This document shows positions 2,355 through 56,584 of a DNA stretch of 64,000 bases, one piece after another (position 1 is the stretch's first letter; each line of letters opens with the position of its first letter). The DNA comes from an uncultured bacterium. Lineage in GTDB: Bacteria; Patescibacteriota; Minisyncoccia; Moranbacterales; UBA2206. The stretch lies in NCBI GenBank assembly GCA_903831805.1, contig CAIKZD010000014.1, forward strand, positions 2,078-66,077, given 5' to 3'. Under the pieces are notes generated by a model. That model was not told where the DNA came from, did not search any database, and worked only from the letters and a program-made list of their open reading frames with translations. The position numbers and the translations under genes are program-made.

Positions 2355-2388
2355 AGTATTTTTTACATTAAGTATTTTACTGTCCTTA

Positions 2389-2661: not shown

Positions 2662-2665
2662 ATTT

Positions 2666-3040
2666 TTAGTTTTTCCACAGCCCGTGCACGTTGCAATACG
2701 CCCGTGCTTCAGCATGCTCAGCTTCCAGACAAAATTCCGCCATCGGTTCATCTCCCGGTTCTAGCTGCTTTCTATACGTGCGGTGCTCAGTGATAAGCTC
2801 GATCCATTCGATATAATGCTCGGCGGTCATCGGATGCGCGACGCTCCCCACGCGCACAATCATGCCAATGTCGGTTTTTTCGATGGTTGGCTGATGCTTT
2901 TCCGTCCCTTCCTCTTCACTCTTTGCTTGCACGAGTTCCATCGGTTGTCCACAACACACCATTTCTCCCGTGCCACTGTGGACCAATTCAGTCATATTCC
3001 CGCACACGTTGCACTTGTACACTTGATTTAATTCTGCCAT
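2666..3040 (-). CDS. dfx: desulfoferrodoxin (superoxide reductase, 2-domain Dfx)
   Basis: Desulforedoxin-like N-terminus CNVCGN...CCGQPM plus neelaredoxin-type HPMTAEHYIEW...CNVHGLW centre II. Confidence 0.85.
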   Translation of the reverse strand: MAELNQVYKCNVCGNMTELVHSGTGEMVCCGQPMELVQAKSEEEGTEKHQPTIEKTDIGMIVRVGSVAHPMTAEHYIEWIELITEHRTYRKQLEPGDEPMAEFCLEAEHAEARAYCNVHGLWKN

Positions 3041-3068
3041 ATTTTTATATTCTTAAATTAATTTATTA

Positions 3069-4328: not shown

Positions 4329-4346
4329 ATTTCCATTATACTTTAG

Positions 4347-5300: not shown

Positions 5301-5329
5301 AGTTACGCGCTCGTATTTAATTTGTAAAA

Positions 5330-6172: not shown

Positions 6173-6261
6173 ATTTCAGATGATTTATGAAATATTTTTC
6201 GCCTAAATAGTAAAGTAAGCATTTTTTTGCTAAGATTAAACTATTACAACCTACTAGGCAT

Positions 6262-7560: not shown

Positions 7561-7561
7561 T

Positions 7562-7610
7562 TGTCATTCCTGCCCCCGCCTAAGCGAGGATAAACTCCGG
7601 CAGGAATCCA
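7562..7610. repeat. Small palindromic element (GTCATTCCTGCC...GGCAGGAAT) immediately after hypF stop
   Basis: cattcctgcc / ggcaggaatc 10-bp arms. Same terminus family as 38458-38512 and 40950-40978. Confidence 0.6.
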
Positions 7611-7649
7611 GTCTCCTATCTTAGAAATTTAATATTTTTCAAAATTAAA

Positions 7650-7679
7650 GGGCCTTGTGTGGAATACAACACAAGACCC
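7650..7679 (-). terminator. Rho-independent terminator for minus-strand gene 7728-8171
   Basis: gggccttgtgt ggaataca acacaagaccc hairpin; on the minus strand it is followed by tttaatttt. Confidence 0.5.
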
Positions 7680-7727
7680 TCTTATACACAGCTGCAATAA
7701 TCACCAAACATGATGATTATCTTCTTC

Positions 7728-8171
7728 CTACTCATCAGGCTTAACTTTCATCTCGCCGATCCGCAAAATAGCAATGCGTTCGCCTGGCGCCTGACGATCA
7801 TATTCTGGGCCTAATTTTGGCGGATTAAGATTAACCGAGGTTTCATATCCTGAAACCATGCCAATGACAATCTGGATTATCCATAAAATCTGGTCTATGC
7901 CCTCAGCTTCCGCCAAGCAATCAGATAGCATAAAAAGACAACCTCGCTCTTTCTCTGATTTACCTATTCCTACCCACAAACCACGTCCATCTCTAACAGG
8001 AATTATTGATGGCCCGGTTTTTTTCCCGTCAGTACGAGTACCCTGAAAAATCCAGAGTTCATCTCCTGGCTTGCCCTTTCCAAAGATGTAGCTAATTTTT
8101 GAATCTTTTTTATCAATTTTCGTCCCAATTACTATACCAGGACAAGTCAACTCATGCTTCTTATCTCCCAT
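7728..8171 (-). CDS. hypothetical protein in hyp cluster
   Basis: ORF MGDKKHELTCPGIVIGTKIDKK... with no recognisable motif. It has its own terminator and sits between hypE and divergent hypF. Confidence 0.45.
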   Translation of the reverse strand: MGDKKHELTCPGIVIGTKIDKKDSKISYIFGKGKPGDELWIFQGTRTDGKKTGPSIIPVRDGRGLWVGIGKSEKERGCLFMLSDCLAEAEGIDQILWIIQIVIGMVSGYETSVNLNPPKLGPEYDRQAPGERIAILRIGEMKVKPDE

Positions 8172-8286
8172 AACATCCCTCCTTATCACTTATATATTTT
8201 ATGGTTTTGGAAATAAGCTCCCGTAAGAACACGACGAATTGTAAAACAGCTGCAACTATATATACTATATTAAAATAACATTTTTG

Positions 8287-9306
8287 TCAACAAATCCTCG
8301 GCACCAACTTCCCCCGTGGCACTTCTATGCGGCGCAGTCCGCCGAGTTCAGTTTTAACAAAAACCCCATTGCCGCGAAAAGTCTGGCCGATAACCCTCGC
8401 TTCAGGATTAAATTTTTGCAAAATGCTTAAAACTTTTTTGACATTTTTCGGCGCCACCGAAGCGATAAACCGCCCTTCAGACGCCAAAGAAAAAATATCA
8501 AGTCCCAAAAGTTCTGTCACAGCCACTGTTTCTTTCTTATACGGCAAAGTTTTTTCGTCCAACACCACTTTAACGCACGACTTCTCCGCCATCTCATTCA
8601 AGTTAGCGGACAGTCCGCCGCGCGTCGGGTCTTTACAAGCGTTGAGATATTTTCCCACTTTTTCAATTTCGCGGTGAAGCGGCGTGCAATCGCTTTGAAT
8701 TTTAGTTTTGTAATTAAAGCGCTTAGCCAAAAGTGTCACTGTGTGTTCACCCAAATCGCCGGAAGAAATGACATAGTCACCCGTTTGCATACCGCCATTC
8801 GAAATGATATTTTGCGCGAGACCCACGCCACTGGTAGTGATTTCAATCTTATCTATTTTACCTTTCTCCGTCACTTTCGTGTCGCCTGTCACAATCGGCA
8901 CGCCAGTTTCGCGGGAAACTTGGCCAATGGACGCCATGATTTTTTTCAAATCATTCATCGGAAATCCCTCTTCCAAAACAATACTAAGGCCAATTCCAAT
9001 CGGCCGTGCGCCCATCATCGCCAGATCATTGATCGTCCCACACATCGCAATCTTCCCAATATTCCCGCCCGGAAAGAAAATCGGATCCACAATAAAGGCA
9101 TCGGTCGTGAAGACCAAATTGCCTGCATCCGTAGAGACGCGATTAATCGCGTCTCTACCCAAGCTAAACACCGCCCCATCATCCCCCGTATTTTTCCACT
9201 TCGATTTCACGGTGAAATTCTTCCTGATTTCTGCAATGATTTCGGCCGATTTCTTCCCTCCACCACCGTGCTCGAGAGTCACCTTGTCAGATTGTTTTGT
9301 TGCCAT
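8287..9306 (-). CDS. hypE: hydrogenase maturation carbamoyl dehydratase HypE
   Basis: PurM-like fold signatures and the characteristic C-terminal PRIC. Confidence 0.88.
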   Translation of the reverse strand: MATKQSDKVTLEHGGGGKKSAEIIAEIRKNFTVKSKWKNTGDDGAVFSLGRDAINRVSTDAGNLVFTTDAFIVDPIFFPGGNIGKIAMCGTINDLAMMGARPIGIGLSIVLEEGFPMNDLKKIMASIGQVSRETGVPIVTGDTKVTEKGKIDKIEITTSGVGLAQNIISNGGMQTGDYVISSGDLGEHTVTLLAKRFNYKTKIQSDCTPLHREIEKVGKYLNACKDPTRGGLSANLNEMAEKSCVKVVLDEKTLPYKKETVAVTELLGLDIFSLASEGRFIASVAPKNVKKVLSILQKFNPEARVIGQTFRGNGVFVKTELGGLRRIEVPRGKLVPRIC

Positions 9307-9386
9307 AATGTTTTAAACATTTTTACTTATAGATTTCGGATTTTATTTGAAATTTTTAATTTAATATTTGAAATTTAAAAAGTATA

Positions 9387-10427
9387 TCATTTTAAATATC
9401 TATACCCCACATTACACGCCCCTTCCACCGAAACCATGCACGGCCCGACGGGATTGTCTGGGGTGCAGATTTTGCCAAAGAGCGGACATCTTTTGGATTC
9501 CATCAGACCACGGATGACTTCCCCGCAGCGACAACCGTCTGGATCTTTGGAATGCGAGAAATCTACTTTATCTAAAATATCTTTGTATTTAATTTTAGCA
9601 TCAAACTGCTTATATTTATTTCTGATTTTTAAACCCGATTTCGGAATGATACCAAATCCCCGCCAATCTCCGTCACCAACTTCGAAAACTTCGGCAATTA
9701 TTTTTCGGATTTTTTCATTCCCCGCATCTTTTACCACGCGAGAATATTGGTTGAGCACCTGCGTATCTTTATTTTTTATTTGATTGAGTAGTAATAATAT
9801 TCCCGCCAAAACATCTTCCATTTCAAAGCCAGTGATGACTTGGGGAATTTTCAATTTCGCGTATGGCGCCGTGCCGAGTACCACACTGACGTGTCCCGGG
9901 TCGATAAAACCATCAATCTTAATTTCCCCCATCGCCAGCAGTGCTTCCATGGCCGGCAAAAATATTTTATGCGCTGAATAGACTGTTAGGCCCTGCTGAA
10001 TCCCCCAAGCTGTCATCGGTGTAGTGGTTTCAAAACCCAACCCGAAAAAAACTAACTCCGGAATTTTCTTAGCAAGCTCAACCGCGTCCGTCACTGAATA
10101 GACGTCATATACTTTGGCGCCCTGTTCACGTGCGCCGTCCAAACTGCCGAAATATCCCGGGACGCGAAGCGCATCACCATAAGTCACTACCGGCACGCTA
10201 GCCAACGCCAAATTCACAATCGCATCAATGTCACGCTGCGCCGTCACACACACAGGACAGCCCGGCCCGGTAATGAGTTTTATATTTTTGGGCAAAATCT
10301 CCCGAATCCCAAACCGACTAATCACCTGCGTATGCGTCCCACACACTTCCATCAAATTCACAGGCCGGCCGATTTCTGCCGCCAGTTTTTCTATTTTTCG
10401 AATAAAATTATCCGTCATATCGGCCAA
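9387..10427 (-). CDS. hypD: hydrogenase maturation factor HypD
   Basis: MEVCGTHT, GPGCPVCV and CPLFGKICTPDNPVGPCMVSVEGAC motifs. Confidence 0.88.
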   Translation of the reverse strand: MADMTDNFIRKIEKLAAEIGRPVNLMEVCGTHTQVISRFGIREILPKNIKLITGPGCPVCVTAQRDIDAIVNLALASVPVVTYGDALRVPGYFGSLDGAREQGAKVYDVYSVTDAVELAKKIPELVFFGLGFETTTPMTAWGIQQGLTVYSAHKIFLPAMEALLAMGEIKIDGFIDPGHVSVVLGTAPYAKLKIPQVITGFEMEDVLAGILLLLNQIKNKDTQVLNQYSRVVKDAGNEKIRKIIAEVFEVGDGDWRGFGIIPKSGLKIRNKYKQFDAKIKYKDILDKVDFSHSKDPDGCRCGEVIRGLMESKRCPLFGKICTPDNPVGPCMVSVEGACNVGYRYLK

Positions 10428-10435
10428 GCGGACAG

Positions 10436-10469
10436 TCTGCTGTAATCAGCGGACTGTCCGCGCTCTTTT
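10436..10469 (-). promoter_or_regulatory. Strong hairpin in hypC-hypD intergenic spacer
   Basis: gcggacagtc tgctg taat cagcg gactgtccgc has a 10-bp perfect outer stem and no U-tract. Possible processing or attenuation site. Confidence 0.35.
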
Positions 10470-10486
10470 AAATTTCTCTATTCGCA

Positions 10487-10687
10487 TTATTTCAAATACT
10501 CTTCAATATCCTTAACCACATCATCTTCAATCTTTTCAATCGCAAACCCGGCGTGCACAATCACGAACTCGCCTATTTTGGGCTCGCTCAGCAAAGTTAT
10601 ATTGATTTCTTTTTGCACACCCGAAAAATCAACTGTCGCCAGATGTTCATTAATTTTGATAATTTTTCCTGGAATAGCTAAACACAT
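10487..10687 (-). CDS. hypC: hydrogenase maturation factor HypC
   Basis: MCLAIPGKIIKI N-terminus (Cys2). The ORF-track upstream extension overlaps the 165-bp repeat, so start is taken at MCLAIP. Confidence 0.85.
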   Translation of the reverse strand: MCLAIPGKIIKINEHLATVDFSGVQKEINITLLSEPKIGEFVIVHAGFAIEKIEDDVVKDIEEYLK

Positions 10688-10850
10688 GCCGATTTTGTCT
10701 GCGAGCGTAGCGAGGAGGAACAAAATCGAGCACCCCGCATAAATTCGCTCTCAAAATTATATATTAAACTACAGTTAAGCCGCAGGCGCCTACGCACACA
10801 AATCCCTACATTTTCACCATCTTCATTGGAATTTTGTGCGGGGTTGCTAT
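10685..10850. repeat. About 165-bp structured repeat element, copy A (other copies at 17325-17495 and 33376-33540)
   Basis: catgccgattttgtctgcgagcgtagcgag...aagccgcaggcgcctacgcac...cattggaattttgtgcgggg aligns along its length with copy B. It starts at the hypC start codon and ends at the stop of the [FeFe]-like gene. Confidence 0.7.
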
Positions 10851-10852
10851 TT

Positions 10853-12298
10853 TTAAATTTCCGCTGATTGCCCTCCTCCGCGTTCGCATCCCCTCGGACA
10901 CACCATCACTTCCAGAAAGTCATAATGTTTTTCTCTTTTTAATTCAGCTGATAAGGCGTTCTTGATTTCGAGCACGCCGTTGGCCGCACCGATGGAAAAA
11001 TCACCCTTGATTTTTTTGGCCGTCATGGCGGAGAGGTTGCCATATCCATACGTCGTAGCATACTCGGCGTCCGTCTCATCCAAAAACTTATCCGCCGCGG
11101 AGCCTTTGAAACGGATGTTTTCTGTTTTCTTCTCCCGCGCGATGCGGCCCAGCTCCCGCACCGTGACGATATGATCAATCGCATTACTCTTGAGTTTTTT
11201 TCTGGCGGCGCAAGATGAGATAAGTATCACTCGGATGTTTTTCGGATCGATTTTTTCTCGCTTGGCATATTCCCATTTGACCGCTTCCGCCATCAATTCT
11301 TCCGGCCGTTTTACGTCGATAATATTTTTTATTAATTCCGGAAAATATTTTTGGATATACAGCGCCGCGCTCGGGCAAAAACTGGAGATAAATTTTCGCT
11401 GGCGCACCGGCGTTTTTTTTCTGGCGTGATGCGGATGGATCTCTTCCGCCACAGCTTCGACATATTTCTGGAATCCCCAACTCAGATCGAAAACTTTTTC
11501 GCATCCCAGTGCCCGCAGATTCCCGGCCAAATTTTCCATGTTCTTCACCTCAAGAAGTTCCTGCATCGCGCTTTTCAGGACCACCGGGTCCACGATGGCC
11601 ACTGAAAGAATGTTGGTGTCATCTAAGTCGGTGATGACTTTTTGGATATCGCCCTGGTCGGCCAGCGCGCCGGTCGGGCAATGCGTCACGCAGGCTCCGC
11701 AAAAAATACAATCCAGTGGCTGGTTGTATGGCGTCCCAACCACCACATCTCCTGAGCGATGATTGAAACCATACGAACTGACGGGACAAATGTTGATGCA
11801 ACGCCGACATTCTACGCAATATTGCGAATCACGCTCAATGACCGGATTTTCTCTGTCCACCACCACGCGAGACCAGTTATCCAGCAAAAGTTCATTTTCC
11901 TCGCCACTAGTCATCTCACCTTTTCTTGGCACAAAATGAAAATTCTCTATCTTATATTCTTCCGCCAAAGTTTGCAATTCACAGCGACGGTTTTTTTTGC
12001 ACTGAAAACACTTGCCGGCATGATCCGCCCAAAGCAGTTCCAAATTGATGGCCCGCGCTTTCTGGATGTTTTCATTTTCCGTTTCCACTTTCATCCCATC
12101 AACGGCTTTGGTCGCACAAGAAGTCACCAACCGGCCAGATTTATCAATTTCTACCAAACACAACCGACAAACTGCTTCGCGTTTAAGTTTTCCATGCGAA
12201 CAAAGAGTCGGAATGCGGATCCCCTCGCGCCGACAGACATCCAAGACAGTGTCTTTTTCTTTGGCGCTATATTTTTTTCCATTTATTTTTATTTGCAT
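10853..12298 (-). CDS. [FeFe]-hydrogenase-like catalytic subunit (HydA-like, M3 architecture) with atypical H-cluster motifs
   Basis: NuoG-like N-terminus (2Fe-2S CRLCLVEI; CVECRRCINICP; CIFCGACVTHCP). H-domain motifs are L1 SSFCPSA (canonical TSCCPGW), L2 SSCAARKK (MPCxxKKxE), L3 EVMVCPRGCERGGGQS (ExMACxxGCxxGGGQ). Start taken at MQIKINGKKY (12298), overlapping the nuoF-like stop. Confidence 0.75.
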   Translation of the reverse strand: MQIKINGKKYSAKEKDTVLDVCRREGIRIPTLCSHGKLKREAVCRLCLVEIDKSGRLVTSCATKAVDGMKVETENENIQKARAINLELLWADHAGKCFQCKKNRRCELQTLAEEYKIENFHFVPRKGEMTSGEENELLLDNWSRVVVDRENPVIERDSQYCVECRRCINICPVSSYGFNHRSGDVVVGTPYNQPLDCIFCGACVTHCPTGALADQGDIQKVITDLDDTNILSVAIVDPVVLKSAMQELLEVKNMENLAGNLRALGCEKVFDLSWGFQKYVEAVAEEIHPHHARKKTPVRQRKFISSFCPSAALYIQKYFPELIKNIIDVKRPEELMAEAVKWEYAKREKIDPKNIRVILISSCAARKKLKSNAIDHIVTVRELGRIAREKKTENIRFKGSAADKFLDETDAEYATTYGYGNLSAMTAKKIKGDFSIGAANGVLEIKNALSAELKREKHYDFLEVMVCPRGCERGGGQSAEI

Positions 12299-13536
12299 AA
12301 TATTTTTAATTTTTCCACGGCATCCCCCATCGCCGTCGCCGCAAATCTGCCCAGCGGACAAAAAGTTGTATTTTCCAAAGTCCATAAAATGTCTTTGAGT
12401 GCTTCCCGATCCCGCTCGGAAATTTCTCCGTCCTGCCATCTGCTCACAATTTCATGCAGCCGAAAAGTGCCTTCGCGGCACGGCACGCATTTGCCACACG
12501 ACTCGCGACGGAAAAATTCCGTCCAAGACAAGATTAAATCATAGATATTGGCACTTTTGTCGACAACCAAAATAGATCCTGAGCCGAGGGGAATCGGACA
12601 GTCACGAGAAAATGTGAGCGGCGTATCCAATTCCTTCTCGGTGACAAGATGTCCGGACGCTCCCCCAATTTGCGCAAACCAAAATTCTTTACCCAATGTC
12701 ACGCCGCCGCCGATTTCATCAATCAACTCACGGATGGTTAGGCCAGTCGGCGCTTCCACTACGCCCGGTTTTTTCACACTTCCACCCAAGATGTACAATT
12801 TCATCCCCGGCGAACAGGTGGCCCCGAGCTTGGCATATTTTTTCCCAGAGTTTAAGATTATCCACGGAATATTGGCGATTGTCTCGGCGTTGTTCACGCA
12901 TGTCGGTTTGCCGAAAAGCCCGGTTTCCGTCGGATAGGGCGGTCTAAGTCGCGGTTCGCCGCGACGCCCTTCGATAGAATTAAGGAGGGCCGTTTCTTCA
13001 CCGCAGATATACGCCCCGGCTCCAGAAAAAATTTCAATATCCAAATCATAACTCGAACCCATGATCCCCGGTCCCCAAAAATTTTTCTTCCGCGCTGCTT
13101 CCAATGCCGTTTCTAGAATTTCTTTTTGCTTATGATAATTCCCATTGAGATAGAGATAGGCTTTATGCGCCCCGACGGCTAGTGCGGCAATAATGACCCC
13201 TTCCAAAAGCAAATGCGGATCATTATCCACAATCATGCGGTCCTTATATGTGCCCGGCTCCGATTCTTCCAAATTGCAAATGAAATATTTCTCATGGCTT
13301 GCATTCTCAGCCACTATTTTTAATTTTTCCCCGGTCAAAAATCCCGCCCCACCCCGCCCGGACAACTTGGATTTCACAATTTCAGCAATGGCTGTTTGTG
13401 GCTTCATCTCTGAGACAAACTTTTTGAGCGCGCCGTAACCGCCTACATTTATATAATCAGCAATCTTGAGAGGATTAATATGCCCCCAGTTTTTGGTCAG
13501 TATTTTTTCTGTCTTAGCCATATTTATTAAATCCAA
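12289..13536 (-). CDS. NADH-binding NuoF/HoxF/HydB-like flavoprotein subunit
   Basis: GRGGAGFLTG FMN/NAD site, C-terminal ESCGKCVPCREG 4Fe-4S motif. Length 415 aa. Confidence 0.85.
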   Translation of the reverse strand: MDLINMAKTEKILTKNWGHINPLKIADYINVGGYGALKKFVSEMKPQTAIAEIVKSKLSGRGGAGFLTGEKLKIVAENASHEKYFICNLEESEPGTYKDRMIVDNDPHLLLEGVIIAALAVGAHKAYLYLNGNYHKQKEILETALEAARKKNFWGPGIMGSSYDLDIEIFSGAGAYICGEETALLNSIEGRRGEPRLRPPYPTETGLFGKPTCVNNAETIANIPWIILNSGKKYAKLGATCSPGMKLYILGGSVKKPGVVEAPTGLTIRELIDEIGGGVTLGKEFWFAQIGGASGHLVTEKELDTPLTFSRDCPIPLGSGSILVVDKSANIYDLILSWTEFFRRESCGKCVPCREGTFRLHEIVSRWQDGEISERDREALKDILWTLENTTFCPLGRFAATAMGDAVEKLKILCK

Positions 13537-22338: not shown

Positions 22339-22770
22339 CTATTTTTTGTCGGCTGTTTCTACTTCACCAGTAATAGATTTGGAAGCTAAGATACGCTCTC
22401 CGAAAGTAAATTCAAACTTAGGAGTTTTCGGACCGAGCACTTTCACGCCGTGACAAGTGTCTGAGCCTTTCAAGAAGTTCTTTTTAACTAGCGCTTCCAT
22501 CGTGATTTCCGCCCCACTCTCGAATTTTTTGGCCAAAGCGCTAAATTGAATCACCAAGGGCTTGATGCGGTGAACTATGAAACCTTTTTTCTTTTTCATG
22601 TGATCGATCAAAGTTGAACGGCCACCTTCAAACAAAGGGTCCACATGCGCGCCACTCCTGGCCTTTTGCCCCTTGCAACCTTTACCGCAATAAGTTCCTT
22701 TCTTTCCCCCACGGCCAACAGTCTTTCTAATTTTCCGCGGCGTGGTAATTTTTAAATCGTTGATCTGCAT
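22339..22770 (-). CDS. rplO: 50S ribosomal protein L15
   Basis: GRGGKKGTYCGKG...KGQKARSG. It directly follows rpsE with no L30 gene. Confidence 0.85.
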   Translation of the reverse strand: MQINDLKITTPRKIRKTVGRGGKKGTYCGKGCKGQKARSGAHVDPLFEGGRSTLIDHMKKKKGFIVHRIKPLVIQFSALAKKFESGAEITMEALVKKNFLKGSDTCHGVKVLGPKTPKFEFTFGERILASKSITGEVETADKK

Positions 22771-22796
22771 AGCTAATTTATATTAAATTCCTTACA

Positions 22797-23330
22797 CTAT
22801 TCGACTACGGCACTATCCATCCTTTCGCGTTTGGCTTTTTCACCTGTTCTATCTTCGCGATTTCTGGCCGCTTTCAGGCTTTCTAAAGCCTTGACTGTCG
22901 CGCGCGCCACATTAAGCTTATTGGCGGTGCCTAGAGATTTAGAAACAATATCCTTAATGCCGGCATAGTCGACCACCGCTCGCACAGCGCCGCCCGCTAC
23001 GATTCCACGTCCCTTAGCCGCCGGTTTCAACATCACTTTCGCACTGCCCATCTTGATGAAAACCTCATGCGCGATGGTATTTTTTTGCATCGGCACATCA
23101 ATCAAATTCTTCTTAGCATCATCAAAAGCCTTTTTGATAGAATCGGAAACATCCGCACCTTTGCCCACGCCCACGCCCACTTTGCCTTTGCGATTTCCGA
23201 TCACCAAAGAAGCCCGGAAGCGGAATCTGCGTCCACCTTTGACCACGCGGGTCACTCTCGCCAAATCCAAAAGCTTCTGATCATATTCAGGTTTTTCCTT
23301 CTTAGTTCTTGGTCGGTTATCTCTAGACAT
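22797..23330 (-). CDS. rpsE: 30S ribosomal protein S5
   Basis: VTRVVKGGRRFRFRA motif. Confidence 0.9.
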   Translation of the reverse strand: MSRDNRPRTKKEKPEYDQKLLDLARVTRVVKGGRRFRFRASLVIGNRKGKVGVGVGKGADVSDSIKKAFDDAKKNLIDVPMQKNTIAHEVFIKMGSAKVMLKPAAKGRGIVAGGAVRAVVDYAGIKDIVSKSLGTANKLNVARATVKALESLKAARNREDRTGEKAKRERMDSAVVE

Positions 23331-33101: not shown

Positions 33102-33380
33102 TCAAGCAGTCTTTTCGTATCTGATTTCTTCGGTCTTTTCTTGACCCAACTCGGTCAAATCCATGTCGGCCACTTTTTCCTCTTCCTGGAGCACTTTCCA
33201 ACTGGCAATATCATTGTTAATCTTATCAATCAACTCCTGCTTTGTCAAGCCCTCCACCCCTTCTTTTTTGATTTTCCTAAATTCCTTCAAACTGAGCAAG
33301 ACAAAATATTGATTTCCGTCTTTCAACACGGCTTTTCCTCCGAGGAGTTCCAGCGCTTCTTTGAGTTTTTCGTCTAGCAT
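33102..33380 (-). CDS. hypothetical small protein at head of tuf-S10 operon
   Basis: 92-aa ORF with a charged helical C-terminus. Its start codon abuts copy B of the 165-bp repeat. Confidence 0.4.
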   Translation of the reverse strand: MLDEKLKEALELLGGKAVLKDGNQYFVLLSLKEFRKIKKEGVEGLTKQELIDKINNDIASWKVLQEEEKVADMDLTELGQEKTEEIRYEKTA

Positions 33381-33670: not shown

Positions 33671-36600
33671 CTACCACCCAAATAAATTTCTAGTCAACGT
33701 CCCGAAATTCCCGGTCGGTAAGATATTTCTCAGTTGTTGCAGTTTAGTGACCGCTTGTTGGGTGAGACTTTTGTAAACTCCATAGGTGGTGTCTTTGATT
33801 TTTAAGAGGCCCAGTTTTTGGAGGGCTGTTTGCAAAGCACCTACGTCTTGACCTTGCGAGCCAAGACTGAGATTACGGTTAATAGTGACACTTTGTTTGT
33901 GGAACCATTTTTTAGTAGCCGTGATCTTTTGGGTGAATTTCTGTTGGAAAGTTTTGGGCTTAGGTTTCTTATGGTGGGTCTGGTGGTGATGGCTACTACT
34001 GGAAGACGTGGTAACAATGGCCGCTTGAGTAATAGTGAAACTGACGGTCGTAGCATTATTGGCGGCGTCAGTCACAATAAGAGTGTAGATGCCAATAGCT
34101 GAGATGGCTGTGCCGGAAGTGTAGGGGTCGCCATTCAGGGTAGCGGTGCCTTCGGTGAAGGTGGGGGCTTGGGGAGTGGTGTAGGTTTGGCCGTCAATCA
34201 CCCTCATTACAACTGGCGGAATGATGTCGATGATGACACTCGCACTAAGGCTGCTTGAAACATTGCCCGCCGCATCTTTGGCCCAAGCGTGGAGGGTTTT
34301 GGAACCGGCAGAGGAGAAGTTATAAGAAGAAGGCGCGCTTCCCGTCCATCCAGCGTCCCCAGAAGCAGGGGCAGAAGATGACTCGGTAACCATACAGCCA
34401 GCCACCGCAATATCATCAGTAGCGGTAAAGGTGGTTATTGGAACTGTGGGTGAATTGGAAATGGCAGGAATACTGAAAGCAGTGACAGTCGGGGCAGATG
34501 AGTCTAGAGATGTCATTGATAAATTTATACTTTTTGTGCTGTCCATAGTTGCTTGGGTTGATGCGTCATTAAAACCCGTTTTCGAAACAGTAATAGTGTG
34601 GGGTGTATATTGATTATAATTAGAAGTCGCCGGATATGTGACTCCATATCGCTTGAATTGAGTAAGTGTTAAACGCGCGTTCCCTGAACCGTCGGTCGTT
34701 CCGGAAACAGTTTCGGCCGCTCCGCCAGTCGCGTTGACCGTAACAGTTGCGCCAGAAATTGGTAAGCTAGTCGATGAATTTTGGACATTAACGTTCAAAT
34801 ACCATTTGGTGTACAGACTGTAATTTCCCCCGCCAGAACCAGCCAGCGCTAGATCGTCCCCGCTGGCACCATTTTGCCAATTGTTATCAATGAAGTTGTT
34901 TTCGGTTGCACTATTCGTCCAATATCCAGCACGAATTGAATTAAATCCATGGGGATTTGTGCCTTTAATGAATGTATTGGAAACTACGTTGAAATTGCTT
35001 CCGGCTCCGTCAGGACCGTTAGCGTCTACAATTAGAGAATTGCTTGTGACCGTGTTATTGTGAAAAGTTGAACTGCTGTCAGCGGTACCATCAAGGTATA
35101 AACCAGCTGCCGTGAGTGTAGCATCGGTTGTTTCTACTGTCACTGTATTGTTATAGATCTGATTATTAACAGCATATTGTCCGCCGACAACTTTAATGCC
35201 CTCAGCAATACAATCATTACCTGTTTGAGTCGGAAATTGCGACGGACAGGCATTTAATCCAGCATGGGCAGTAATCGTATTGCTATAAATCTGCACGTCA
35301 TGAGCGCCAAACCTTAATTGAATGCCAACGTCTGTTCCCGGCGTTCTCAAATATTCTCCTGAGTCTTCTGCTTCTCGCACATCTATATTATTGTCATGGA
35401 CTGTCCCCAATCCAGGCCCAGGACTATCTGCATTATAATTGCCTGCAACAAGTATCCCGCGGCCGGAACTTTGGACTATAGTATTATTGGCAATCTCAAA
35501 ATCTATATTGTCGTTACTTCCACTTCCTATTGAAATGGCATAGCCATCTCTTACCGTAGCCGCCATTTTTATGGTGTTATTGTTAATATGCAAAGTGTCG
35601 GTGAGAGCTCCCACGTAACCAAAACCTATGCCTGAACATCCTGTTCCATCAATATCGTTATTGTAAATATCAACATTTCCAGTTGAACTAACTGTGATTG
35701 TATTAAAACCACCATAATGAGTTGCGCCATAAGTTACGTTAAGCAGTAGTCCTCCTGCTTCGGCCACACTACAGTTACTAGTTGGCGGAAGGACAGTATA
35801 ACCACCATTATCATATGGGCTTACACTAGTCACTACTCCGCCGGAACTAACCCCACTAACAGTAAAGACACCAGCCGATGTTCCCGTGCCTCCAACCAAA
35901 GTAACGTGCTGTCCTACGCTATAGACACTTCCTCCGTTTGCAATAGTCGCATAAACTGCTCCTGTGGCTCTTTTGGTTCCATTCGGATGAATAACATTGT
36001 CATGAATTTGGACGCTTTGGCCTCCCGCGCCGTTGGTATCAATAATCGCCTCGTTATTATCACCCGTATAGCTAATAGACAGATGATCAGCTTCAATATT
36101 CACCCCTTGCCTAAAATAAATCGCGATGCTTTGATAACCATTTCCTGCTCCCTGGACAAAACTGCCATTGGTTACTCTGGCTCCGTTCGGATTCCAGGCT
36201 GACAAATAGCCATAGACGCTATCACCTGCGGCGGTGTTATATGTAACAGTGTGCCCGTTCAGGTCGAGTATTGTGCCGTTGGCGGACGTAGTGAAACAGG
36301 TTCCGGCTGAAGAAACATCATTGTCTAAAATGTAGGTTGTATTGGCCGAACTCAATGTCCCGCAAGCGCTGATATGCGTAATGATCGCTGTAGTAGATAG
36401 TGATGAAGATAAAGCGCTGGCAATATCGGTGGGAGCTAAGACACCATCCCCGTTCTTAGCTTGCGTGCTGAAAGTATAGGAAGTACTGGCGCTAAGTCCC
36501 GTCACATTAATTGCAATTCCGCTCGGATTCCAGGTTGCCGCAGTTTGCCAGACCGGACTGGTTCCCAAAGAACCATCAGCCTGCGTATATTTAGAGTCAG

Positions 36601-38272
36601 TTGCATCGTAAATCGCATAAGTCGTATTGGCAGGATTATTATTAGCACTAATGACGACTCCGATTGATGACCAGGAATTCGTGCCGGCAGAAAGCGTCGG
36701 GGTGCTTGGAGCGTTCGCCAACGTGGTAAAAGCCTGACAGGAACTGGTTCCAGTACCCTCAGGATTGGTGGCGTAGGCAGTGTAATGGTAGACAGTATTC
36801 ACAGACATGGCACTACTGTTAGAAAGGGAATAGACACCCGCCCCATAATTTCCATTTTCGTGGGGACTCTGGATTGGAGATCCACTGCAATCGCTGGAAG
36901 TATAAATATTGAATCCCCGTTCGGTAGCCTCTTGGCCCTGAACATCGGTGATGTTGCCGTTAAAAGTGGCCGAGCTAGCTGTCACATCGGTAGAATCTGA
37001 GCCCGTCAAAATTGGCACAGCTGACAAAGTAGTGAAGCTTTGGCAGGAGCTAGAACCAGAACCTCCACTGTTTATGGCGTAAGAAGTATATGAATATTGG
37101 GTTTGAGCGGTTAAACTAGTAATATCCTTACTAAATACACCGGTATTATATGAGCCCCCAGTATCTTTGGGATTTTGGATGGAACCACCCGAACAAGTTC
37201 CCCCACTATATAGATTGAATCCCCGTTCAGTAGCGTTTTGGCCGCCGGTATCGCTGATATCCCCGTGGAGCGTGGCAGTTGTTGTAATAATCGGATTAGC
37301 TGCCGAAACGGTAACGGTCGGCGCTGACGCCTGCCCGGCAAATGTCTTAAAAACAATGTACTGATAGACCTTAGTGTTCCAGTTCACATTAGAGCTGGCT
37401 CCGATTTGAAATCCATCTGCTTCTAATGCTTGGACTAAATCAGCAGCAGGAGGACCACCTAATTGATCTAGCTCAGGCGTCAGATCATCCACCCAACTGC
37501 TCGTACGCCAATTAGTATACCCACCCGCGCTCGACGCTCGAACCAATGCAGCATTGGGTTGAAAACCTACACCGATGATTGATCGATTATCGGCGCCGTT
37601 ACCCGTATACGTTCCCACTTTAATGTAACCAGCGTGGTTTTTAAAAGCTAGATAATAGTAAACAGTAGTGCTTTGATTTACTCCAGCAGCAGTACCTACC
37701 GTAAAACCGTCAGTATCAAACGACTGAATTTGATCGGCGGCTTCAGAAGAGCCGTAAGCGAGATTTACGGAAGCATCCCCAACTTCCGTTGACCACCTCG
37801 CCACACCACTTGTCCAAGTATTCCCGCCTGCCTTCGTTAATACAAAATCCGGTTGAAAACCAACGCTGGTAATCTGACGATTATCAGAGCCATCTCCAGT
37901 ATACGTGCCAATGTGAAAATCTCCGCCGCTATTATCTTTCCAGGCGGTCCATTGATAAGTGGCTGTGCTTTTGTTGACTGAAGCATTTGTACCCAAGGTG
38001 AAACCATCCGAGTCAAGTGTCTGAATAATATTTGACGCAGAAGGTTGGCCTACAGCAATTGGAATAGAGTAATCGCCCACCATCGCTGAAGACCGAAATT
38101 CCGGCATCTGCCCTTCTGAGGTACAAACAATCAAAACCGCACTGGGCTGGAAACCAATCCCGATTATTGGTCGATTATCATTACCATCTCCGGTATAAGT
38201 TCCGACAGCCATTTGCATCTGGCCGCTAGCATGAGCGGTTTTCGGATAATTAAAGACAAAAAAACTTCCCAA
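33671..38272 (-). CDS. giant (1533 aa) secreted cell-surface protein: N-terminal tandem ~85-aa repeats, Ig/Fn-like repeats, right-handed beta-helix region, C-terminal peptidoglycan-binding domain
   Basis: Four GTYTGDGxDNRxIxxVGFQP...DxDGFTxGT..VNxSTxxYxYxAWK repeats and three ~95-aa repeats with ATERGFNxY...C. There are many N-x-(N/T/D)-rich beta-helix rungs. The C-terminal LGSQGQDVGALQTALQKLGLL...GNFGTLTRNLFGW matches the PG_binding_1 fold. The annotated TTG start at 38272 gives a poor signal peptide. Confidence 0.8.
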   Translation of the reverse strand: MGSFFVFNYPKTAHASGQMQMAVGTYTGDGNDNRPIIGIGFQPSAVLIVCTSEGQMPEFRSSAMVGDYSIPIAVGQPSASNIIQTLDSDGFTLGTNASVNKSTATYQWTAWKDNSGGDFHIGTYTGDGSDNRQITSVGFQPDFVLTKAGGNTWTSGVARWSTEVGDASVNLAYGSSEAADQIQSFDTDGFTVGTAAGVNQSTTVYYYLAFKNHAGYIKVGTYTGNGADNRSIIGVGFQPNAALVRASSAGGYTNWRTSSWVDDLTPELDQLGGPPAADLVQALEADGFQIGASSNVNWNTKVYQYIVFKTFAGQASAPTVTVSAANPIITTTATLHGDISDTGGQNATERGFNLYSGGTCSGGSIQNPKDTGGSYNTGVFSKDITSLTAQTQYSYTSYAINSGGSGSSSCQSFTTLSAVPILTGSDSTDVTASSATFNGNITDVQGQEATERGFNIYTSSDCSGSPIQSPHENGNYGAGVYSLSNSSAMSVNTVYHYTAYATNPEGTGTSSCQAFTTLANAPSTPTLSAGTNSWSSIGVVISANNNPANTTYAIYDATDSKYTQADGSLGTSPVWQTAATWNPSGIAINVTGLSASTSYTFSTQAKNGDGVLAPTDIASALSSSLSTTAIITHISACGTLSSANTTYILDNDVSSAGTCFTTSANGTILDLNGHTVTYNTAAGDSVYGYLSAWNPNGARVTNGSFVQGAGNGYQSIAIYFRQGVNIEADHLSISYTGDNNEAIIDTNGAGGQSVQIHDNVIHPNGTKRATGAVYATIANGGSVYSVGQHVTLVGGTGTSAGVFTVSGVSSGGVVTSVSPYDNGGYTVLPPTSNCSVAEAGGLLLNVTYGATHYGGFNTITVSSTGNVDIYNNDIDGTGCSGIGFGYVGALTDTLHINNNTIKMAATVRDGYAISIGSGSNDNIDFEIANNTIVQSSGRGILVAGNYNADSPGPGLGTVHDNNIDVREAEDSGEYLRTPGTDVGIQLRFGAHDVQIYSNTITAHAGLNACPSQFPTQTGNDCIAEGIKVVGGQYAVNNQIYNNTVTVETTDATLTAAGLYLDGTADSSSTFHNNTVTSNSLIVDANGPDGAGSNFNVVSNTFIKGTNPHGFNSIRAGYWTNSATENNFIDNNWQNGASGDDLALAGSGGGNYSLYTKWYLNVNVQNSSTSLPISGATVTVNATGGAAETVSGTTDGSGNARLTLTQFKRYGVTYPATSNYNQYTPHTITVSKTGFNDASTQATMDSTKSINLSMTSLDSSAPTVTAFSIPAISNSPTVPITTFTATDDIAVAGCMVTESSSAPASGDAGWTGSAPSSYNFSSAGSKTLHAWAKDAAGNVSSSLSASVIIDIIPPVVMRVIDGQTYTTPQAPTFTEGTATLNGDPYTSGTAISAIGIYTLIVTDAANNATTVSFTITQAAIVTTSSSSSHHHQTHHKKPKPKTFQQKFTQKITATKKWFHKQSVTINRNLSLGSQGQDVGALQTALQKLGLLKIKDTTYGVYKSLTQQAVTKLQQLRNILPTGNFGTLTRNLFGW

Positions 38273-38325
38273 TAAAATTGCGAAGAGAAAAACAAAATTA
38301 ACAAAAGTTTTTAGCGTCCTATTTC

Positions 38326-38342
38326 GAGAGAGAGAGAGAGAG
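38326..38342 (-). repeat. (GA)8G / (CT)8C dinucleotide simple-sequence tract between an ATG and the signal-peptide coding region of the giant gene
   Basis: + strand gagagagagagagagag at 38326-38342; the ATG (minus strand) is at 38358-38356. Removing one CT unit fuses that ATG in-frame to MHEKFTLSLSRNRTLKTFVNFVFLFAILLGSFFVFNYPKTAHA|SGQ... Confidence 0.8.
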
Positions 38343-38457
38343 TAAATTTTTCATGCATTTTTGTTTTTATTATAAAAAGTTTTATGTGTATTTGTCATAC
38401 TCGCGTATGCGGGTATCCAGTCGCTAAGTAATAAGTTTCTACACTAGATTCCTGCCC

Positions 38458-38512
38458 GCTTCGCCATAGCTCCAGCGAGGCGAGCCTGCGCAGGAATGAC
38501 ATATTGACTGTT
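38458..38512. repeat. palindromic element (TTCCTGC...GCAGGAATGACA family) between ORF6N gene and giant gene
   Basis: gattcctgcccgcttcgccatagctccagcgaggcgagcctgcgcaggaatgacat. Confidence 0.55.
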
Positions 38513-38570
38513 TTTAGTATATCAAATTTTGGAGTTTTCACAAAATAGCATTGCGTAAAAAATACTTCTT

Positions 38571-39101
38571 TCATCCTTTGAAACCTATCGGCGACTGCGG
38601 CTTGATGTCTTTCTCTTTTGTTTCTATAATAGACTTTATCGCGTCAAAAACTATCTTGAACTTGTTGTCATATTTCTTTTCCATCAACTCGATCTTAGCT
38701 TGTAAATCCTTATGGCTAGAGAGTACTTCGCGCAATTTTATGAAAACCCGAACGATTTGAATACTCACTCCAATGGCAATCTCACTCTTTAATACTGCCG
38801 ATAACATCATCACGCCTTGCTCTGTAAAAACATAAGTCCTATATTTAGAATATTTCCCCATTTCTAAGGTACCAAATTGGTACCTTAGAAATTCTGTTTC
38901 TTTTTTATCCAATTGAAACATGAAGTCTTCAGGAAAACGTGATATATTCCTTTTAACAGCTCTATTGAGCGCTTTGGTTTCCACGCCATAAAGCTCCGCT
39001 AAATCACGATCAAACATCACCTTTTTGCTACGAATATAATATATTTTCCCCATTATCCTTTCAAATGGAATAGCCGATACTGCTTTTTGTTTTTGTTTCA
39101 T
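38571..39101 (-). CDS. ORF6N (KilA-N-like) domain protein
   Basis: KVMFDRDLAELYGVETKALNRAVKRNISRFPEDFMFQL matches the ORF6N DNA-binding domain found in phage antirepressor-like proteins. Confidence 0.7.
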   Translation of the reverse strand: MKQKQKAVSAIPFERIMGKIYYIRSKKVMFDRDLAELYGVETKALNRAVKRNISRFPEDFMFQLDKKETEFLRYQFGTLEMGKYSKYRTYVFTEQGVMMLSAVLKSEIAIGVSIQIVRVFIKLREVLSSHKDLQAKIELMEKKYDNKFKIVFDAIKSIIETKEKDIKPQSPIGFKG

Positions 39102-39136
39102 TGCGCTAAGTTTTATTTTATTACAATGTTATTCTA

Positions 39137-40432
39137 TCACTCTTTTATTTTTCCGCAAGCTGTCCCGGCTGCATGTCCCGTGCTCCAGGCTATCTGCAAA
39201 TTGTAGCCGCCAGTTGGGCCGTCGAGATCCAAGACTTCGCCAACTAGATACAGGTTGGGCACAATTTTAGAACGCAGCGTTTTCGGCTCGACTTCTTTCA
39301 GGTCCACTCCGCCGCGCGTCATCATTGCTTGCTCAAAGCCGGTGTGGCCGATGACCGTCAGGCGCAGATCTTTGAGCAAACTTACAATGCACGCCCGCTC
39401 AAGCTTAGTAACGATATTGATTTTTTTCGCTGGCAAAATATCCGCCAGGCGCAAGATAATTTTCGCCAGCTTGGGCGGACATAGTTCAGGCAAGTAATTA
39501 AGGATATCTTTATTGGCAAATTTTATGAAATCTTTTTGCAAAAATATATCCAGTGCCTTTCTATCTATTTCCGGTTTTAAATCTATAGAGATGGAAAGTG
39601 GCATGTTTTCCGGTGTAAATTCCGTTATCTTCCGACTGAGGTTCAAAACCGCCGGACCACTGAGACCGAAATGGGTGAAGATCGCATCGCCCATTGTAGA
39701 GACGAGGCAGTGCCTCGTCTCTACGGGTAATTTACCGCGCACTAAACTAATCTTAACATTTTCCAAACTCACGCCCTGCGCTTCTTTGACCCATTTTTCC
39801 TGAATCTTTAGAGGCACCAACGTCGGCATGGGCGTGATAATTTTATGTCCGCAATCGCGCGCCCATGAATATCCGTCCCCCGTCGCACCGGTCGCCGGAT
39901 AAGACTTTCCACCGCTGGCCAGGATAAACTTTTTGGCATGAATAATTTTATTTTTCAAACGTACCCCTGTGATTCTTTTTTGATTGCCGTCCTCCGAAAA
40001 CTCAAAGCCTAAAACTGTCGCACCGAACAAAATTTCCACTCCATTTTTTTGCAAATAATTTTTGAGTGCCCGCAAAACATCCGCGGCTTTATCTGACACT
40101 GGAAAAACTTTTCCTCCCTTTTCAATCTTAGTCGGCACTTTTCGCTCGGCCAAAAAATCCATCATTTCTTGCGGCCCGAACAGACTAAGCGAGGAAAAAA
40201 GAAATTTTCCCTTCTTACCAATTTCTGCCACTAATTTTTTATCGTCAAACTCAGCCTGCGTCACATTGCACCGCCCGCCGCCCGTCATCAAAAGTTTATT
40301 CCCCAAGCTTTCATTTTTTTCCACCAAAAGCACCCGCGCGCCCAATTCCGCGGCCCTCCCCGCCGCCATCATCCCAGCTGGCCCGCCGCCGATGACGATG
40401 ACATCATATTGTTGATTCTTCAATTTTCTCAT
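39137..40432 (-). CDS. HI0933-like FAD-dependent oxidoreductase (aminoacetone oxidase family) with in-frame palindrome insertion
   Basis: YDVIVIGGGPAGMMAAGRAAELGARVLLVEKN...GGGRCNVTQ N-terminus and a C-terminal GxVLDLDGPTGGYNLQ(I)AW motif. Confidence 0.8.
   Translation of the reverse strand: MRKLKNQQYDVIVIGGGPAGMMAAGRAAELGARVLLVEKNESLGNKLLMTGGGRCNVTQAEFDDKKLVAEIGKKGKFLFSSLSLFGPQEMMDFLAERKVPTKIEKGGKVFPVSDKAADVLRALKNYLQKNGVEILFGATVLGFEFSEDGNQKRITGVRLKNKIIHAKKFILASGGKSYPATGATGDGYSWARDCGHKIITPMPTLVPLKIQEKWVKEAQGVSLENVKISLVRGKLPVETRHCLVSTMGDAIFTHFGLSGPAVLNLSRKITEFTPENMPLSISIDLKPEIDRKALDIFLQKDFIKFANKDILNYLPELCPPKLAKIILRLADILPAKKINIVTKLERACIVSLLKDLRLTVIGHTGFEQAMMTRGGVDLKEVEPKTLRSKIVPNLYLVGEVLDLDGPTGGYNLQIAWSTGHAAGTACGKIKE
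39706..39734. repeat. 29-bp perfect palindrome inside the HI0933-like CDS (encodes VETRHCLVST)
   Basis: gtagagacgaggca g tgcctcgtctctac. Confidence 0.65.
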
Positions 40433-40436
40433 AAGA

Positions 40437-40853
40437 TTAAATATCCATCTCTAAATACTCGCGTGCACTGAACAATAGATCTAATTTCAAAACATCTTCT
40501 TTTTTCATCCAGCGCAATTCTTTTATCTTTGGATCTTGGGTTTTGAGCTCTCCTGATATGGCTTTACACGTATAACAAAAAATCAAAGTATGTTGAAAAT
40601 ATCCAGGCAGCTCCCAATTCTTACAAATACTTTTCGGCAAAAATTCTTTAATTTCTATCTCAAGTCCCGATTCCTCTCTTGTTTCGCGGCGAAGTGTCTC
40701 TTCCAGCGACTCGCCCATCTCATTTTTTCCACCGACAAAATCCCACTTAAGATGGGCTTCGGGAAACCTTGGGTCATTGCGAAGTGACACCAGAACCTCG
40801 CCTTTTTTATTTTCAATAAGTCCTAAGACTACGACAATTGATTTCTTTTCCAT
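40437..40853 (-). CDS. Nudix hydrolase
   Basis: Nudix box GGKNEMGESLEETLRRETREESGLEI. Confidence 0.85.
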   Translation of the reverse strand: MEKKSIVVVLGLIENKKGEVLVSLRNDPRFPEAHLKWDFVGGKNEMGESLEETLRRETREESGLEIEIKEFLPKSICKNWELPGYFQHTLIFCYTCKAISGELKTQDPKIKELRWMKKEDVLKLDLLFSAREYLEMDI

Positions 40854-40949: not shown

Positions 40950-40978
40950 TGTCATTCCTGCCTACGCAGGAATGACAG
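40950..40978. repeat. perfect hairpin element tgtcattcctgc ctac gcaggaatgacag downstream of fusA (likely terminator)
   Basis: 12-bp perfect stem, same terminus family as 7562 and 38458. Confidence 0.6.
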
Positions 40979-55682: not shown

Positions 55683-56129
55683 TTAGAATCCGGCAGGTAC
55701 TTGGGTAACATTGCCTTGGCTATCGACAACGACAGCTGTATCGTCACCGATGTTCGACTCTGTGTTGCCTTGATCATCTCCCAAAAATTTGTCGATGAAA
55801 TAAAGCTGCTCTCCAGACTTGAGTGTGTAGGACTGGTCGTGGTACTTCGCTTCCTCCGCCTTCAAGTTAATTTGCACCGTGCCGTCCGGCAAGACCTTTT
55901 TTTCCATCTTGAATCCAGCCAGCGCAGCAGTGGCATCAGCGCTTAAGGTGTCTCCGGATATTAGATAGGCATTTTTGAAATAGGACTGGTCAGAAAACTT
56001 CACCATTGTAGATGATGCCGATAATTGAGATGACGTTTTTGTGGGGGTGGGATTATTGCTGGCTGTTTGACCACAACCTGACAGCACTAGCGCCACAACC
56101 GGCACAATGATCCAAAGTAATTTTTTCAT
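55683..56129 (-). CDS. hypothetical lipoprotein
   Basis: MKKLLWIIVPVVALVLSGC has a signal peptide plus lipobox. Confidence 0.6.
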   Translation of the reverse strand: MKKLLWIIVPVVALVLSGCGQTASNNPTPTKTSSQLSASSTMVKFSDQSYFKNAYLISGDTLSADATAALAGFKMEKKVLPDGTVQINLKAEEAKYHDQSYTLKSGEQLYFIDKFLGDDQGNTESNIGDDTAVVVDSQGNVTQVPAGF

Positions 56130-56221: not shown

Positions 56222-56584
56222 CTAGTCTTGATACTCCTCTTTTTTTGGCTCGAAGTGATTAATGGCCGCGCCGACCAGTGAGAGCACCAAGCTGAAAATC
56301 AGGGCCCACCCGAAACTTTTCACATAGAAACCGTGCACCAAGCTACTGGCGAGCATAACGAGCGCGGCATTGATGACCAAGGTGAAAAGGCCAAGGGTCA
56401 AAAGTTGTATCGGTAAAGTTAGGATAATCAGGATCGGTCTGATGATGCTATTTAGAAATCCTAGAACGACCGCTACTACCAGCGCCGTAAAAAAGCTTTG
56501 TACGAAAATCGCTTCAGTAGGCAATAGATAGGCCGTAATAATGATGGCCAAGGCATAGAGCAGCCAACGCATGATAATTCTCAT
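56222..56584 (-). CDS. DUF360/holin-4-like four-TM membrane protein
   Basis: FLNSIIRPILIILTLPIQLLTLGLFTLVINAALV pattern. Confidence 0.55.
   Translation of the reverse strand: MRIIMRWLLYALAIIITAYLLPTEAIFVQSFFTALVVAVVLGFLNSIIRPILIILTLPIQLLTLGLFTLVINAALVMLASSLVHGFYVKSFGWALIFSLVLSLVGAAINHFEPKKEEYQD

Follow-up and report, generated by a model that had tools for sequence, protein, structure and literature searches.

To our knowledge, slipped-strand phase variation has been described almost entirely in cultivated, host-adapted pathogens (Helicobacter, Haemophilus, Neisseria, Campylobacter and Mycoplasma). Among the described systems, two come closest to the locus presented here. In Helicobacter pylori oipA, CT repeats lie in the signal-peptide region, and their number ranges from 5 to 11 CT among strains (PMC10564699). 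In Haemophilus influenzae licA (lic1), CAAT repeats follow initiation codons that occupy two of the three reading frames, so that two of the three classes of tract length are ON and one is OFF, and switching occurs at 10^-2 to 10^-3 per generation (PMC2212159). Here we describe a tract of CT dinucleotides at the 5' end of a gene for a giant surface protein, carried on the minus strand of a stretch of 64,000 nucleotides (nt) from an uncultured bacterium of the Candidate Phyla Radiation (CPR, or Patescibacteria; contig CAIKZD010000014.1). This whole stretch is called the window below. We give about an even chance to the reading that the tract is a slipped-strand translational phase switch of the oipA and licA type, acting on a giant Sec-exported, peptidoglycan-anchored protein.

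The oipA precedent had been put forward in an earlier inspection of the letters alone (the sequence-only reading), and its description agrees with the published account (PMC10564699). In oipA (hopH), as in sabA/hopZ-type genes and in the window gene, the CT unit sits in the 5', signal-peptide-coding part of a gene with a surface or adhesion product, and in oipA, as is proposed here, the frame decides whether synthesis goes on through the remainder of the signal peptide and the protein. H. pylori is a host-adapted pathogen and oipA encodes a beta-barrel outer-membrane protein, whereas the window gene belongs to an uncultivated environmental CPR bacterium and encodes a protein of approximately 1500 amino acids (aa) with several domains and a PG_binding_1 anchor; the two proteins have no sequence homology, and start codons in two frames are a feature of the window gene. 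That feature recalls licA, where initiation codons in two frames likewise precede an intragenic repeat and where expression returns when an OFF tract gains or loses one unit; in silico, a one-unit change at the window gene likewise restores an ATG-initiated frame. In contrast to the dinucleotide and the exported protein of the window gene, licA has a tetranucleotide repeat and encodes a cytoplasmic choline kinase. For CPR bacteria themselves, Paul and colleagues reportedly described in 2017 diversity-generating retroelements that act on surface proteins. Like the proposed switch, these elements direct hypervariation to surface-exposed proteins in CPR, but they rewrite the codons of a variable region by means of a reverse transcriptase, whereas neither a reverse transcriptase nor a template repeat is involved at the window gene and the effect would be ON/OFF. 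We found no report of phase variation by simple sequence repeats (SSRs) in Patescibacteria or CPR in the literature searched, which agrees with the statement of the sequence-only reading that such a locus was not known to it to be documented there.

A pure CT tract between paired start codons and a signal-peptide coding region

The slippage-prone element occupies positions 38326-38342, where the plus strand reads (GA)8G and the coding minus strand (CT)8C. It is 17 nt long and 100 % pure, and both direct reading and a repeat scan place it, as the sequence-only reading had done, between an ATG and the signal-peptide coding region. Tandem Repeats Finder returned it as (GA)8.5, the sole dinucleotide array in the 64-kb window, and in a regex scan the other dinucleotide runs had at most 5 units and homopolymers reached at most 8. 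A 12-nt GA core is expected by chance 0.15 times in the window, and the observed count was matched in 0 of 100 shuffles. On the coding strand the sequence across start and tract is ...TATAATaaaaacaaaaATGcATGaaaaatttaCTCTCTCTCTCTCTCTCgaaataggacgctaaaaacttttgtt..., in which (CT)8C begins 13 nt downstream of the first ATG, inside the 5' end of the open reading frame (ORF). The repeat encodes (Leu-Ser)n whichever frame is read, and its unit of 2 nt is no multiple of 3, so that in the in-silico alleles the product is full-length or truncated according to the number of units.

Immediately upstream, the start region ATGCATG (ATGCATGA) holds two overlapping ATGs in two different frames. ATG1 (38356-38358, minus strand, as for all features of the gene that follow) yields in the assembled allele the 15-aa peptide MHEKFTLSLSLEIGR*, in line with the sequence-only reading, which had described a short peptide and a stop. 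ATG2 (38352-38354) lies 4 nt after ATG1 in the third frame and yields MKNLLSLSLSK*. The stops of these two short ORFs fall within 38311-38321 (TAG at 38321-38319 in the ATG2 frame and TAA at 38313-38311 in the ATG1 frame). The long ORF, with its stop at 33671, is open only from a TGA (38351-38353) that closes its frame just past ATG1 and overlaps ATG2, and therefore no start is possible further upstream. Reading of the frame confirmed the earlier observation that the ORF has no ATG of its own: no ATG, GTG or TTG is met until the TTG at 38272, which would give 1533 aa, and the startless stretch reads KIYSLSLSRNRTLKTFVNFVFLFAILLGSFFVFNYPKTAHA|SGQMQMAVGTYTGDG. The sole initiator of translation table 11 that lies 5' of the tract in the assembled frame is an ATT (38345-38347), a possible weak start with the product MYSLSLSRNRTLK.... 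Genetic codes 4 and 25, in which TGA is a sense codon, were considered and rejected, as TGA ends 11 of the 47 long ORFs and its read-through would merge genes.

Alleles with n = 4-15 units were enumerated in silico. ATG1 is joined to the long ORF at 4, 7, 10 or 13 units, giving MHEKFT(LS)nRNRTLK..., and ATG2 at 6, 9, 12 or 15 units, giving MKNL(LS)nRNRTLK.... The remaining class (n = 5, 8, 11 or 14) is the only one with no ATG in frame, and ATT-38347 is its sole table 11 initiator; two-thirds of the tract-length classes are ON from an ATG. The assembled allele, with n = 8, yields from its ATGs just the 11- and 15-aa peptides, and one unit either way gives an ATG-initiated preprotein. Loss of one unit or gain of two produces MHEKFTLSLS(LS)RNRTLKTFVNFVFLFAILLGSFFVFNYPKTAHA|SGQ... 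from ATG1, and gain of one unit produces the full-length preprotein MKNLLSLSLSRNRTLK... from ATG2. The sequence-only reading had named the first two changes as the way to the ON state; both do restore the ATG1 frame, but they are not the sole route, as a single added unit works via ATG2. It had also called the assembled allele phase-OFF, which holds insofar as no ATG is in frame at n = 8, but the OFF state could leak through ATT-38347.

Downstream of the tract, the long-ORF frame encodes the rest of the predicted signal peptide (38228-38326), with RNRTLKT as n-region, FVNFVFLFAILLGSFFVF as h-region and NYPKTAHA as c-region, with A at positions -3 and -1. By heuristic scoring, the n-region carries a net charge of +3 or +4, the Kyte-Doolittle mean of the 15-residue h-core FVFLFAILLGSFFVF is 2.78, and cleavage would fall at A-H-A|S; these values agree with the earlier description as a textbook Sec signal peptide with an AxA site. 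The same hydrophobic core, cleavage site and positive n-region are present in all N-termini derived from an ATG or from the ATT, and a start at TTG-38272 keeps merely GSFFVF of the h-region. Public gene callers chose three downstream starts for the gene (1513, 1515 and 1533 aa), and the signal peptide is missing each time. Nearly all of approximately 120 homologues place a signal peptide right ahead of the conserved 'x-TG-x-Y-x-G-x-G' motif with which the first DUF7483 domain starts, and for this reason we take the startless signal peptide to be the real N-terminus.

The mature protein of approximately 1518 aa (33671-38227) consists of N-terminal DUF7483 repeats, fn3-like repeats, a beta-helix-like region and, at the C-terminus, PG_binding_1, a cell-wall anchor domain encoded at approximately 33686-33856. 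Together, the predicted Sec signal peptide, the PG_binding_1 domain and the DUF7483/fn3-like repeats point to a surface-exposed product. Surface-exposed products are the usual targets of phase switches.

The gene has a recognizable promoter of its own, ATGACA-18 nt-TATAAT, with 11 of 12 matches to the sigma-70 consensus. Its -35-like hexamer ATGACA lies at 38393-38398 and its -10 hexamer TATAAT at 38369-38374, ending 10 nt before ATG-38358, a placement that predicts a leaderless or very short-leader mRNA for the giant gene. Such a start fits the habits of the genome: Shine-Dalgarno (SD) sites precede just 5 of the 51 ATG-start genes of the window, the true starts being ATGs after A/T-rich stretches, and the SD-less, A-rich context of ATG-38358 is the genome norm. 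A perfect TATAAT stands 4-9 nt before the ATG of three other window genes (3069-4328, 55683-56129 and 56222-56584); because of these, leaderless or short-leader mRNAs seem normal here, and leaderless mRNAs are suggested to be frequent in the genome. An imperfect 20-bp palindrome, ATACCCGCATACGCGAGTAT (38397-38416, minus strand; 16 of 20 positions self-complementary by eye), abuts and overlaps the -35 hexamer and could be a candidate operator, which would add transcriptional control beside the repeat switch.

The mechanism that we favour, at about an even chance, would join these elements as follows; it is preferred on account of the anatomy with its frames, the native start context, the ATGs in two frames and the second gene with the same layout (below), all of which are seen in the sequence. 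The gene's own promoter would yield a leaderless or nearly leaderless mRNA with ATGCATG, the perfect (CT)n and then the n-, h- and c-regions. Slipped-strand mispairing in replication would alter n by whole units, and n = 7, 10 and so on would link ATG1 to the ORF, n = 6, 9 and so on would link ATG2, and n = 5, 8 or 11 would link neither, leaving an 11- or 15-residue peptide and either no protein or a trace from the ATT. As the CT repeat reads as Leu-Ser in each frame, length changes would be harmless to the signal peptide; (Leu-Ser)n would fall in the tolerant n-region and every ON allele would have a functional signal peptide. The sampled clone would sit in the sole non-ATG class, from which a single-unit slip in either direction would switch the gene ON. 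A useful slippage rate, the reversibility of the switch and its adaptive value are parts of this mechanism that we infer.

The same layout at a second giant surface-protein gene

A second locus with this layout was found among the homologues, in the gene for protein P0053, which starts MGFCSLSLSLSRRP.... Its DNA (L006) reads GGAG-8 nt-ATG AAA CCA AAA GGT GGG GTT TTG-(CT)11C-G TAG..., such that the frame of the SD-linked ATG stops right after (CT)11C, and RRP and the h-region follow downstream in the long-ORF frame. A TGA overlapping the ATG opens the long ORF, in which a GTG at 4001 is in frame, so that start codons again occupy two frames, ATG in one and GTG in another; 8 nt separate the SD sequence from the ATG, and 21 nt separate it from the GTG. 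Gain of one unit or loss of two would give MKPKGGVLLSLSLSLSRRPIIFVISALLIFGAFLNFLHKDNKAEA|NGSS, with the preprotein MKPKGGVLLSLSLSLSRRPIIF...AEA|NGSS, and loss of one unit would leave no start. P0053 is a different giant surface protein (BNR_4/DUF2341/PKD) that has in common with the window protein only a central fn3-like module (53 % identity), for which an alignment scan found no relatives in GTDB genome contigs and two weak, unrelated matches in JGI metagenomes. The host of L006 is distant from the window organism, their M50 peptidases being approximately 37 % identical.

Repeat length in other genomes, a comparison that the sequence-only reading had proposed, was 11 units in L006 and 11 units in a second sample (L013), the two coming from ERZ27297441 and ERZ27297509, and (CT)5 in the closest orthologue (L014). 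The L013 gene differs from that of L006 by one codon and a 102-aa domain-copy indel, differences too few for an inference on purifying selection. The indel (L006 4001-8647 versus L013 9950-14902) is an extra copy of the fn3-like 'NATERGFN...GGSIQNPKDTGGSY' module, and therefore the domain copy number of the giant surface protein also varies between strains. The L014 orthologue, P0244, is 63 % identical over 99 % of the query and is in frame from an SD-preceded ATG. Its Leu-Ser stretch, TLSLNTLSLS (142-180), draws its second LSLS from the non-repeat codons CTG AGC TTG TCG, a pattern that could point to a 'locked-ON' tract that has decayed, or to selection acting on the Leu-Ser peptide. As L014 is in frame from its upstream ATG, we take initiation upstream of the Leu-Ser stretch to be ancestral, and tract length differs between orthologues. 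The broader claim places genuine contingency loci in CPR bacteria, namely in Moranbacteria and one or more distant relatives, where CT tracts with multi-frame starts would stochastically switch giant cell-wall-anchored surface proteins; it falls in our judgement a little short of an even chance.

Tract length across assemblies and rival explanations

Several observations weigh against a phase switch, and the first of these concerns tract length. Switching in oipA is defined by strain-to-strain variation in unit number; tract-length polymorphism, the defining trait of a phase-variable locus, was not seen among the clonal assemblies of the window gene. The tract has 8 units in each of L001, L002 and L003, which come from three samples, at least two studies and two assembly naming schemes, and the 90 % identity protein cluster (approximately 12 contigs) holds only products of 1513, 1515 and 1533 aa and none of the ON length of approximately 1561 aa. 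The assemblies that carry the protein (P0001) are ERZ27313058, ERZ27313095, ERZ18626419 and roughly 9 others. The sequence-only reading had expected a population heterogeneous in repeat number, an expectation that these assemblies do not bear out. However, the contigs have 0 SNPs (single-nucleotide polymorphisms) relative to the window and are 100 % identical over 7.5-10.5 kb, and because they are one clone, the shared n = 8 is a weak test. Moreover, assemblies show the majority allele only. A search for alleles of any tract length, using the two flanks and a variable gap, gave 0 matches among JGI metagenome and GTDB genome contigs. Phase-variable genes can be mostly OFF in natural collections, for example lav in non-typeable H. 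influenzae (PMC9022572). The 11 units shared by L006 and L013 belong to near-identical strains and are no independent test.

The other opposing points concern the genome and the gene family. A second long SSR is absent from the 64 kb by the regex scan, and classical phase-variable genomes hold many such tracts. No mutS or mutL lies in the 64-kb window, from which the mismatch-repair status of the genome is not inferable. Both assembled alleles keep an in-frame table 11 start (ATT in the window, GTG in L006). Finally, most DUF7483 homologues have no repeat at this position, and the CT-tract design is not general to DUF7483 genes.

Four truncated-looking DUF7483 homologues were examined as carriers of hidden switches, and all four were rejected, with no SSR in any. 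An in-frame upstream start is present in three (a missed GTG in L007, a missed ATG in L009 and a missed TTG in L010), and L008 has a point nonsense codon. In L008 (approximately 2290-2500; P0031) a TAA in frame replaces a Lys that is conserved in relatives (LYNSI*NPSDVID versus LYLSLKDPNVID there); it sits between the signal peptide and the first domain, and either the allele could be inactivated by this point change or the codon could be read through. The closest relatives at the N-terminus, P0068 and P0032, were likewise rejected as frameshifted genes, as they lie in phage-like gene clusters and have no signal peptide. The two (L004 1626-5579 and L005 2340-6134; P0068 at 47 % and P0032 at 45 % against the N-terminal DUF7483 region of the window protein) stand amid packed small genes, in one cluster with Amidase_2, and these clusters look like phage or prophage structural modules. 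The DUF7483 domain may be shared by CPR surface proteins and phage tail or fibre proteins.

There are four rival explanations for the locus. The one that survives best, and which we still judge unlikely, is an accidental and effectively fixed frameshift, in which the (LS)n repeat slipped once and left a young pseudogene or a dispensable gene with no adaptive switching. It would account for the same non-ATG allele in all sampled assemblies and for the presence of just one long SSR in 64 kb, and the L008 gene, a DUF7483 giant gene broken by a plain nonsense codon, suggests that such genes do get inactivated. However, the 1533-codon ORF and the signal-peptide coding are fully intact and a 17-nt tract free of interruptions is by its nature reversible. 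An accident would not be expected to leave ATGs in both of the other frames, or the same layout with a longer tract at a second gene, and a purely harmful tract should be purged or interrupted (compare L014).

A second explanation, rather improbable in our estimate, is constitutive, perhaps weak, expression from an in-frame non-ATG start (ATT-38347; GTG-4001 in L006), with the tract as a low-complexity n-region and the ATGs as short upstream ORFs. ATT is a very poor initiator (as in E. coli infC), and leaderless initiation requires AUG. The ATT here has no SD sequence, in a genome that relies on ATG in A-rich or leaderless contexts, and the two well-placed ATGs just upstream would draw ribosomes into dead ends of 11 and 15 codons; the spacing of the SD sequence in L006 suits the ATG but does not suit the GTG. 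Set against this, in both assembled alleles a table 11 initiator precedes the tract in frame and would yield an acceptable signal peptide. At each locus all assemblies agree in tract length, GTG and TTG serve as starts in other homologues, and the partly non-repeat codons of LSLS in L014 hint at conservation at the peptide level.

RNA-level recoding, a third explanation, appears very improbable. Here RNA polymerase, or the ribosome (tRNA-Leu/tRNA-Ser on CUCUCU), would realign by 2 nt and so bring part of the transcripts or translations back into frame, giving constitutive low expression from a fixed DNA allele. As in programmed frameshifting and transcriptional slippage (prfB +1, dnaX -1, poly-A), the full-length product of the window gene needs an early frame change, and a dinucleotide repeat permits perfect re-pairing after a shift of +/-2; the DNA allele does appear fixed, and both the window and the L006 loci are out of frame with their ATG. 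But the hallmarks of those systems (slippery heptamer, homopolymer, stimulatory hairpin or pseudoknot, conserved shift direction) are all missing from the window gene: direct reading finds neither an X_XXY_YYZ heptamer nor a homopolymer run, the 5' 103 nt (38262-38364) fold with z = +0.94 versus shuffles, which gives no stimulatory structure, and the window and L006 loci require opposite shift directions. No Rfam family matches the region and no known RNA element or riboswitch was found in the leader, the sole Rfam match in the window being a tRNA. We know of no precedent for dinucleotide-tract recoding in bacteria.

An assembly or sequencing artefact, with a true tract of 7 or 9 units and an intact gene, is hardly credible: dinucleotide repeats are liable to polymerase stutter, but the identical tract recurs in three samples whose assemblies are independent and come from at least two studies (MEGAHIT-style k141_ contigs; a 'scaffold' assembly), 17 nt is far below read length or a k-mer of 141, and the L006/L013 locus is also reproduced in two samples.

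If the tract is indeed a phase switch, a known mechanism would be at work in a lineage where it is apparently undescribed. Stochastic surface switching would then be part of the lifestyle of ultra-small, probably episymbiotic CPR cells. If the broader claim of contingency loci in CPR bacteria holds, they would form the first SSR 'phasome' beyond cultivated pathogens, most of which are host-associated, and a form of bet-hedging by which tiny and probably host-attached cells attach, or evade recognition by phage or host. The DUF7483/PG_binding_1 and BNR_4/PKD giant proteins would be likely interaction or phage-receptor molecules under fluctuating selection. The claim of a switch is directly testable with existing public reads. 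There is also a consequence for annotation, as gene callers systematically mis-annotate such genes; because the called, truncated starts lose the signal peptide (three starts here), exported giant proteins of CPR may be under-counted.

Genomic setting and neighbouring elements

SecY of the window shares 76-80 % identity with proteins named as Candidatus Moranbacteria, and on this identity the organism is a member of Candidatus Moranbacteria (CPR/Patescibacteria); closer relatives (P0125-P0133) have 85-92 % SecY identity. In the ribosomal block L6-L18-S5-L15-SecY, 26 nt separate rpsE (S5) from rplO (L15), with no rpmD (L30) between them (22339-23330); a missing L30 is typical of CPR.

The giant gene itself lies within the str operon, where the conserved fusA-tuf junction (33671-40853) is split by four inserted genes, for a NUDIX hydrolase, an HI0933-like flavoprotein, an ORF6N protein and the giant surface protein. 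The insertion also includes a 92-aa ORF (33102-33380) with no Pfam match, and the ORF6N protein is KilA-N/antirepressor-like. For an accessory surface-protein gene, the fusA-tuf junction is an unusual site.

A GC-rich hairpin (38448-38497, minus strand; GTCATTCCTGCGCAGGC...GCAGGAAT) with a fold of -27.3 kcal/mol separates the promoter from the ORF6N gene; its z = -1.7 is a marginal gain over shuffles. It is probably a terminator or insulator that parts the giant gene from upstream transcription. A GC-rich palindromic element, GTCATTCCTGCG(Y)AGGCAGGAATGAC, recurs intergenically after genes at 38484-38500 (minus strand), 40951-40976 (both strands) and 7563-7579 (plus strand), with 4 matches versus 0.08 expected, and these include copies of the hairpin arm (40951-40976 and 7563-7579). 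The element resembles a family of repetitive extragenic palindromic (REP)-like or terminator hairpins within this genome.

At its left end (1-12500), the window holds hydrogenase-related genes, encoding a NiFe-hydrogenase large-subunit-like protein (3069-4328) and a HypF C-terminal-like protein (6262-7560). These are accompanied at 10853-12439 by an Fe-only hydrogenase or NuoG-like protein, a notable metabolic content for Moranbacteria.

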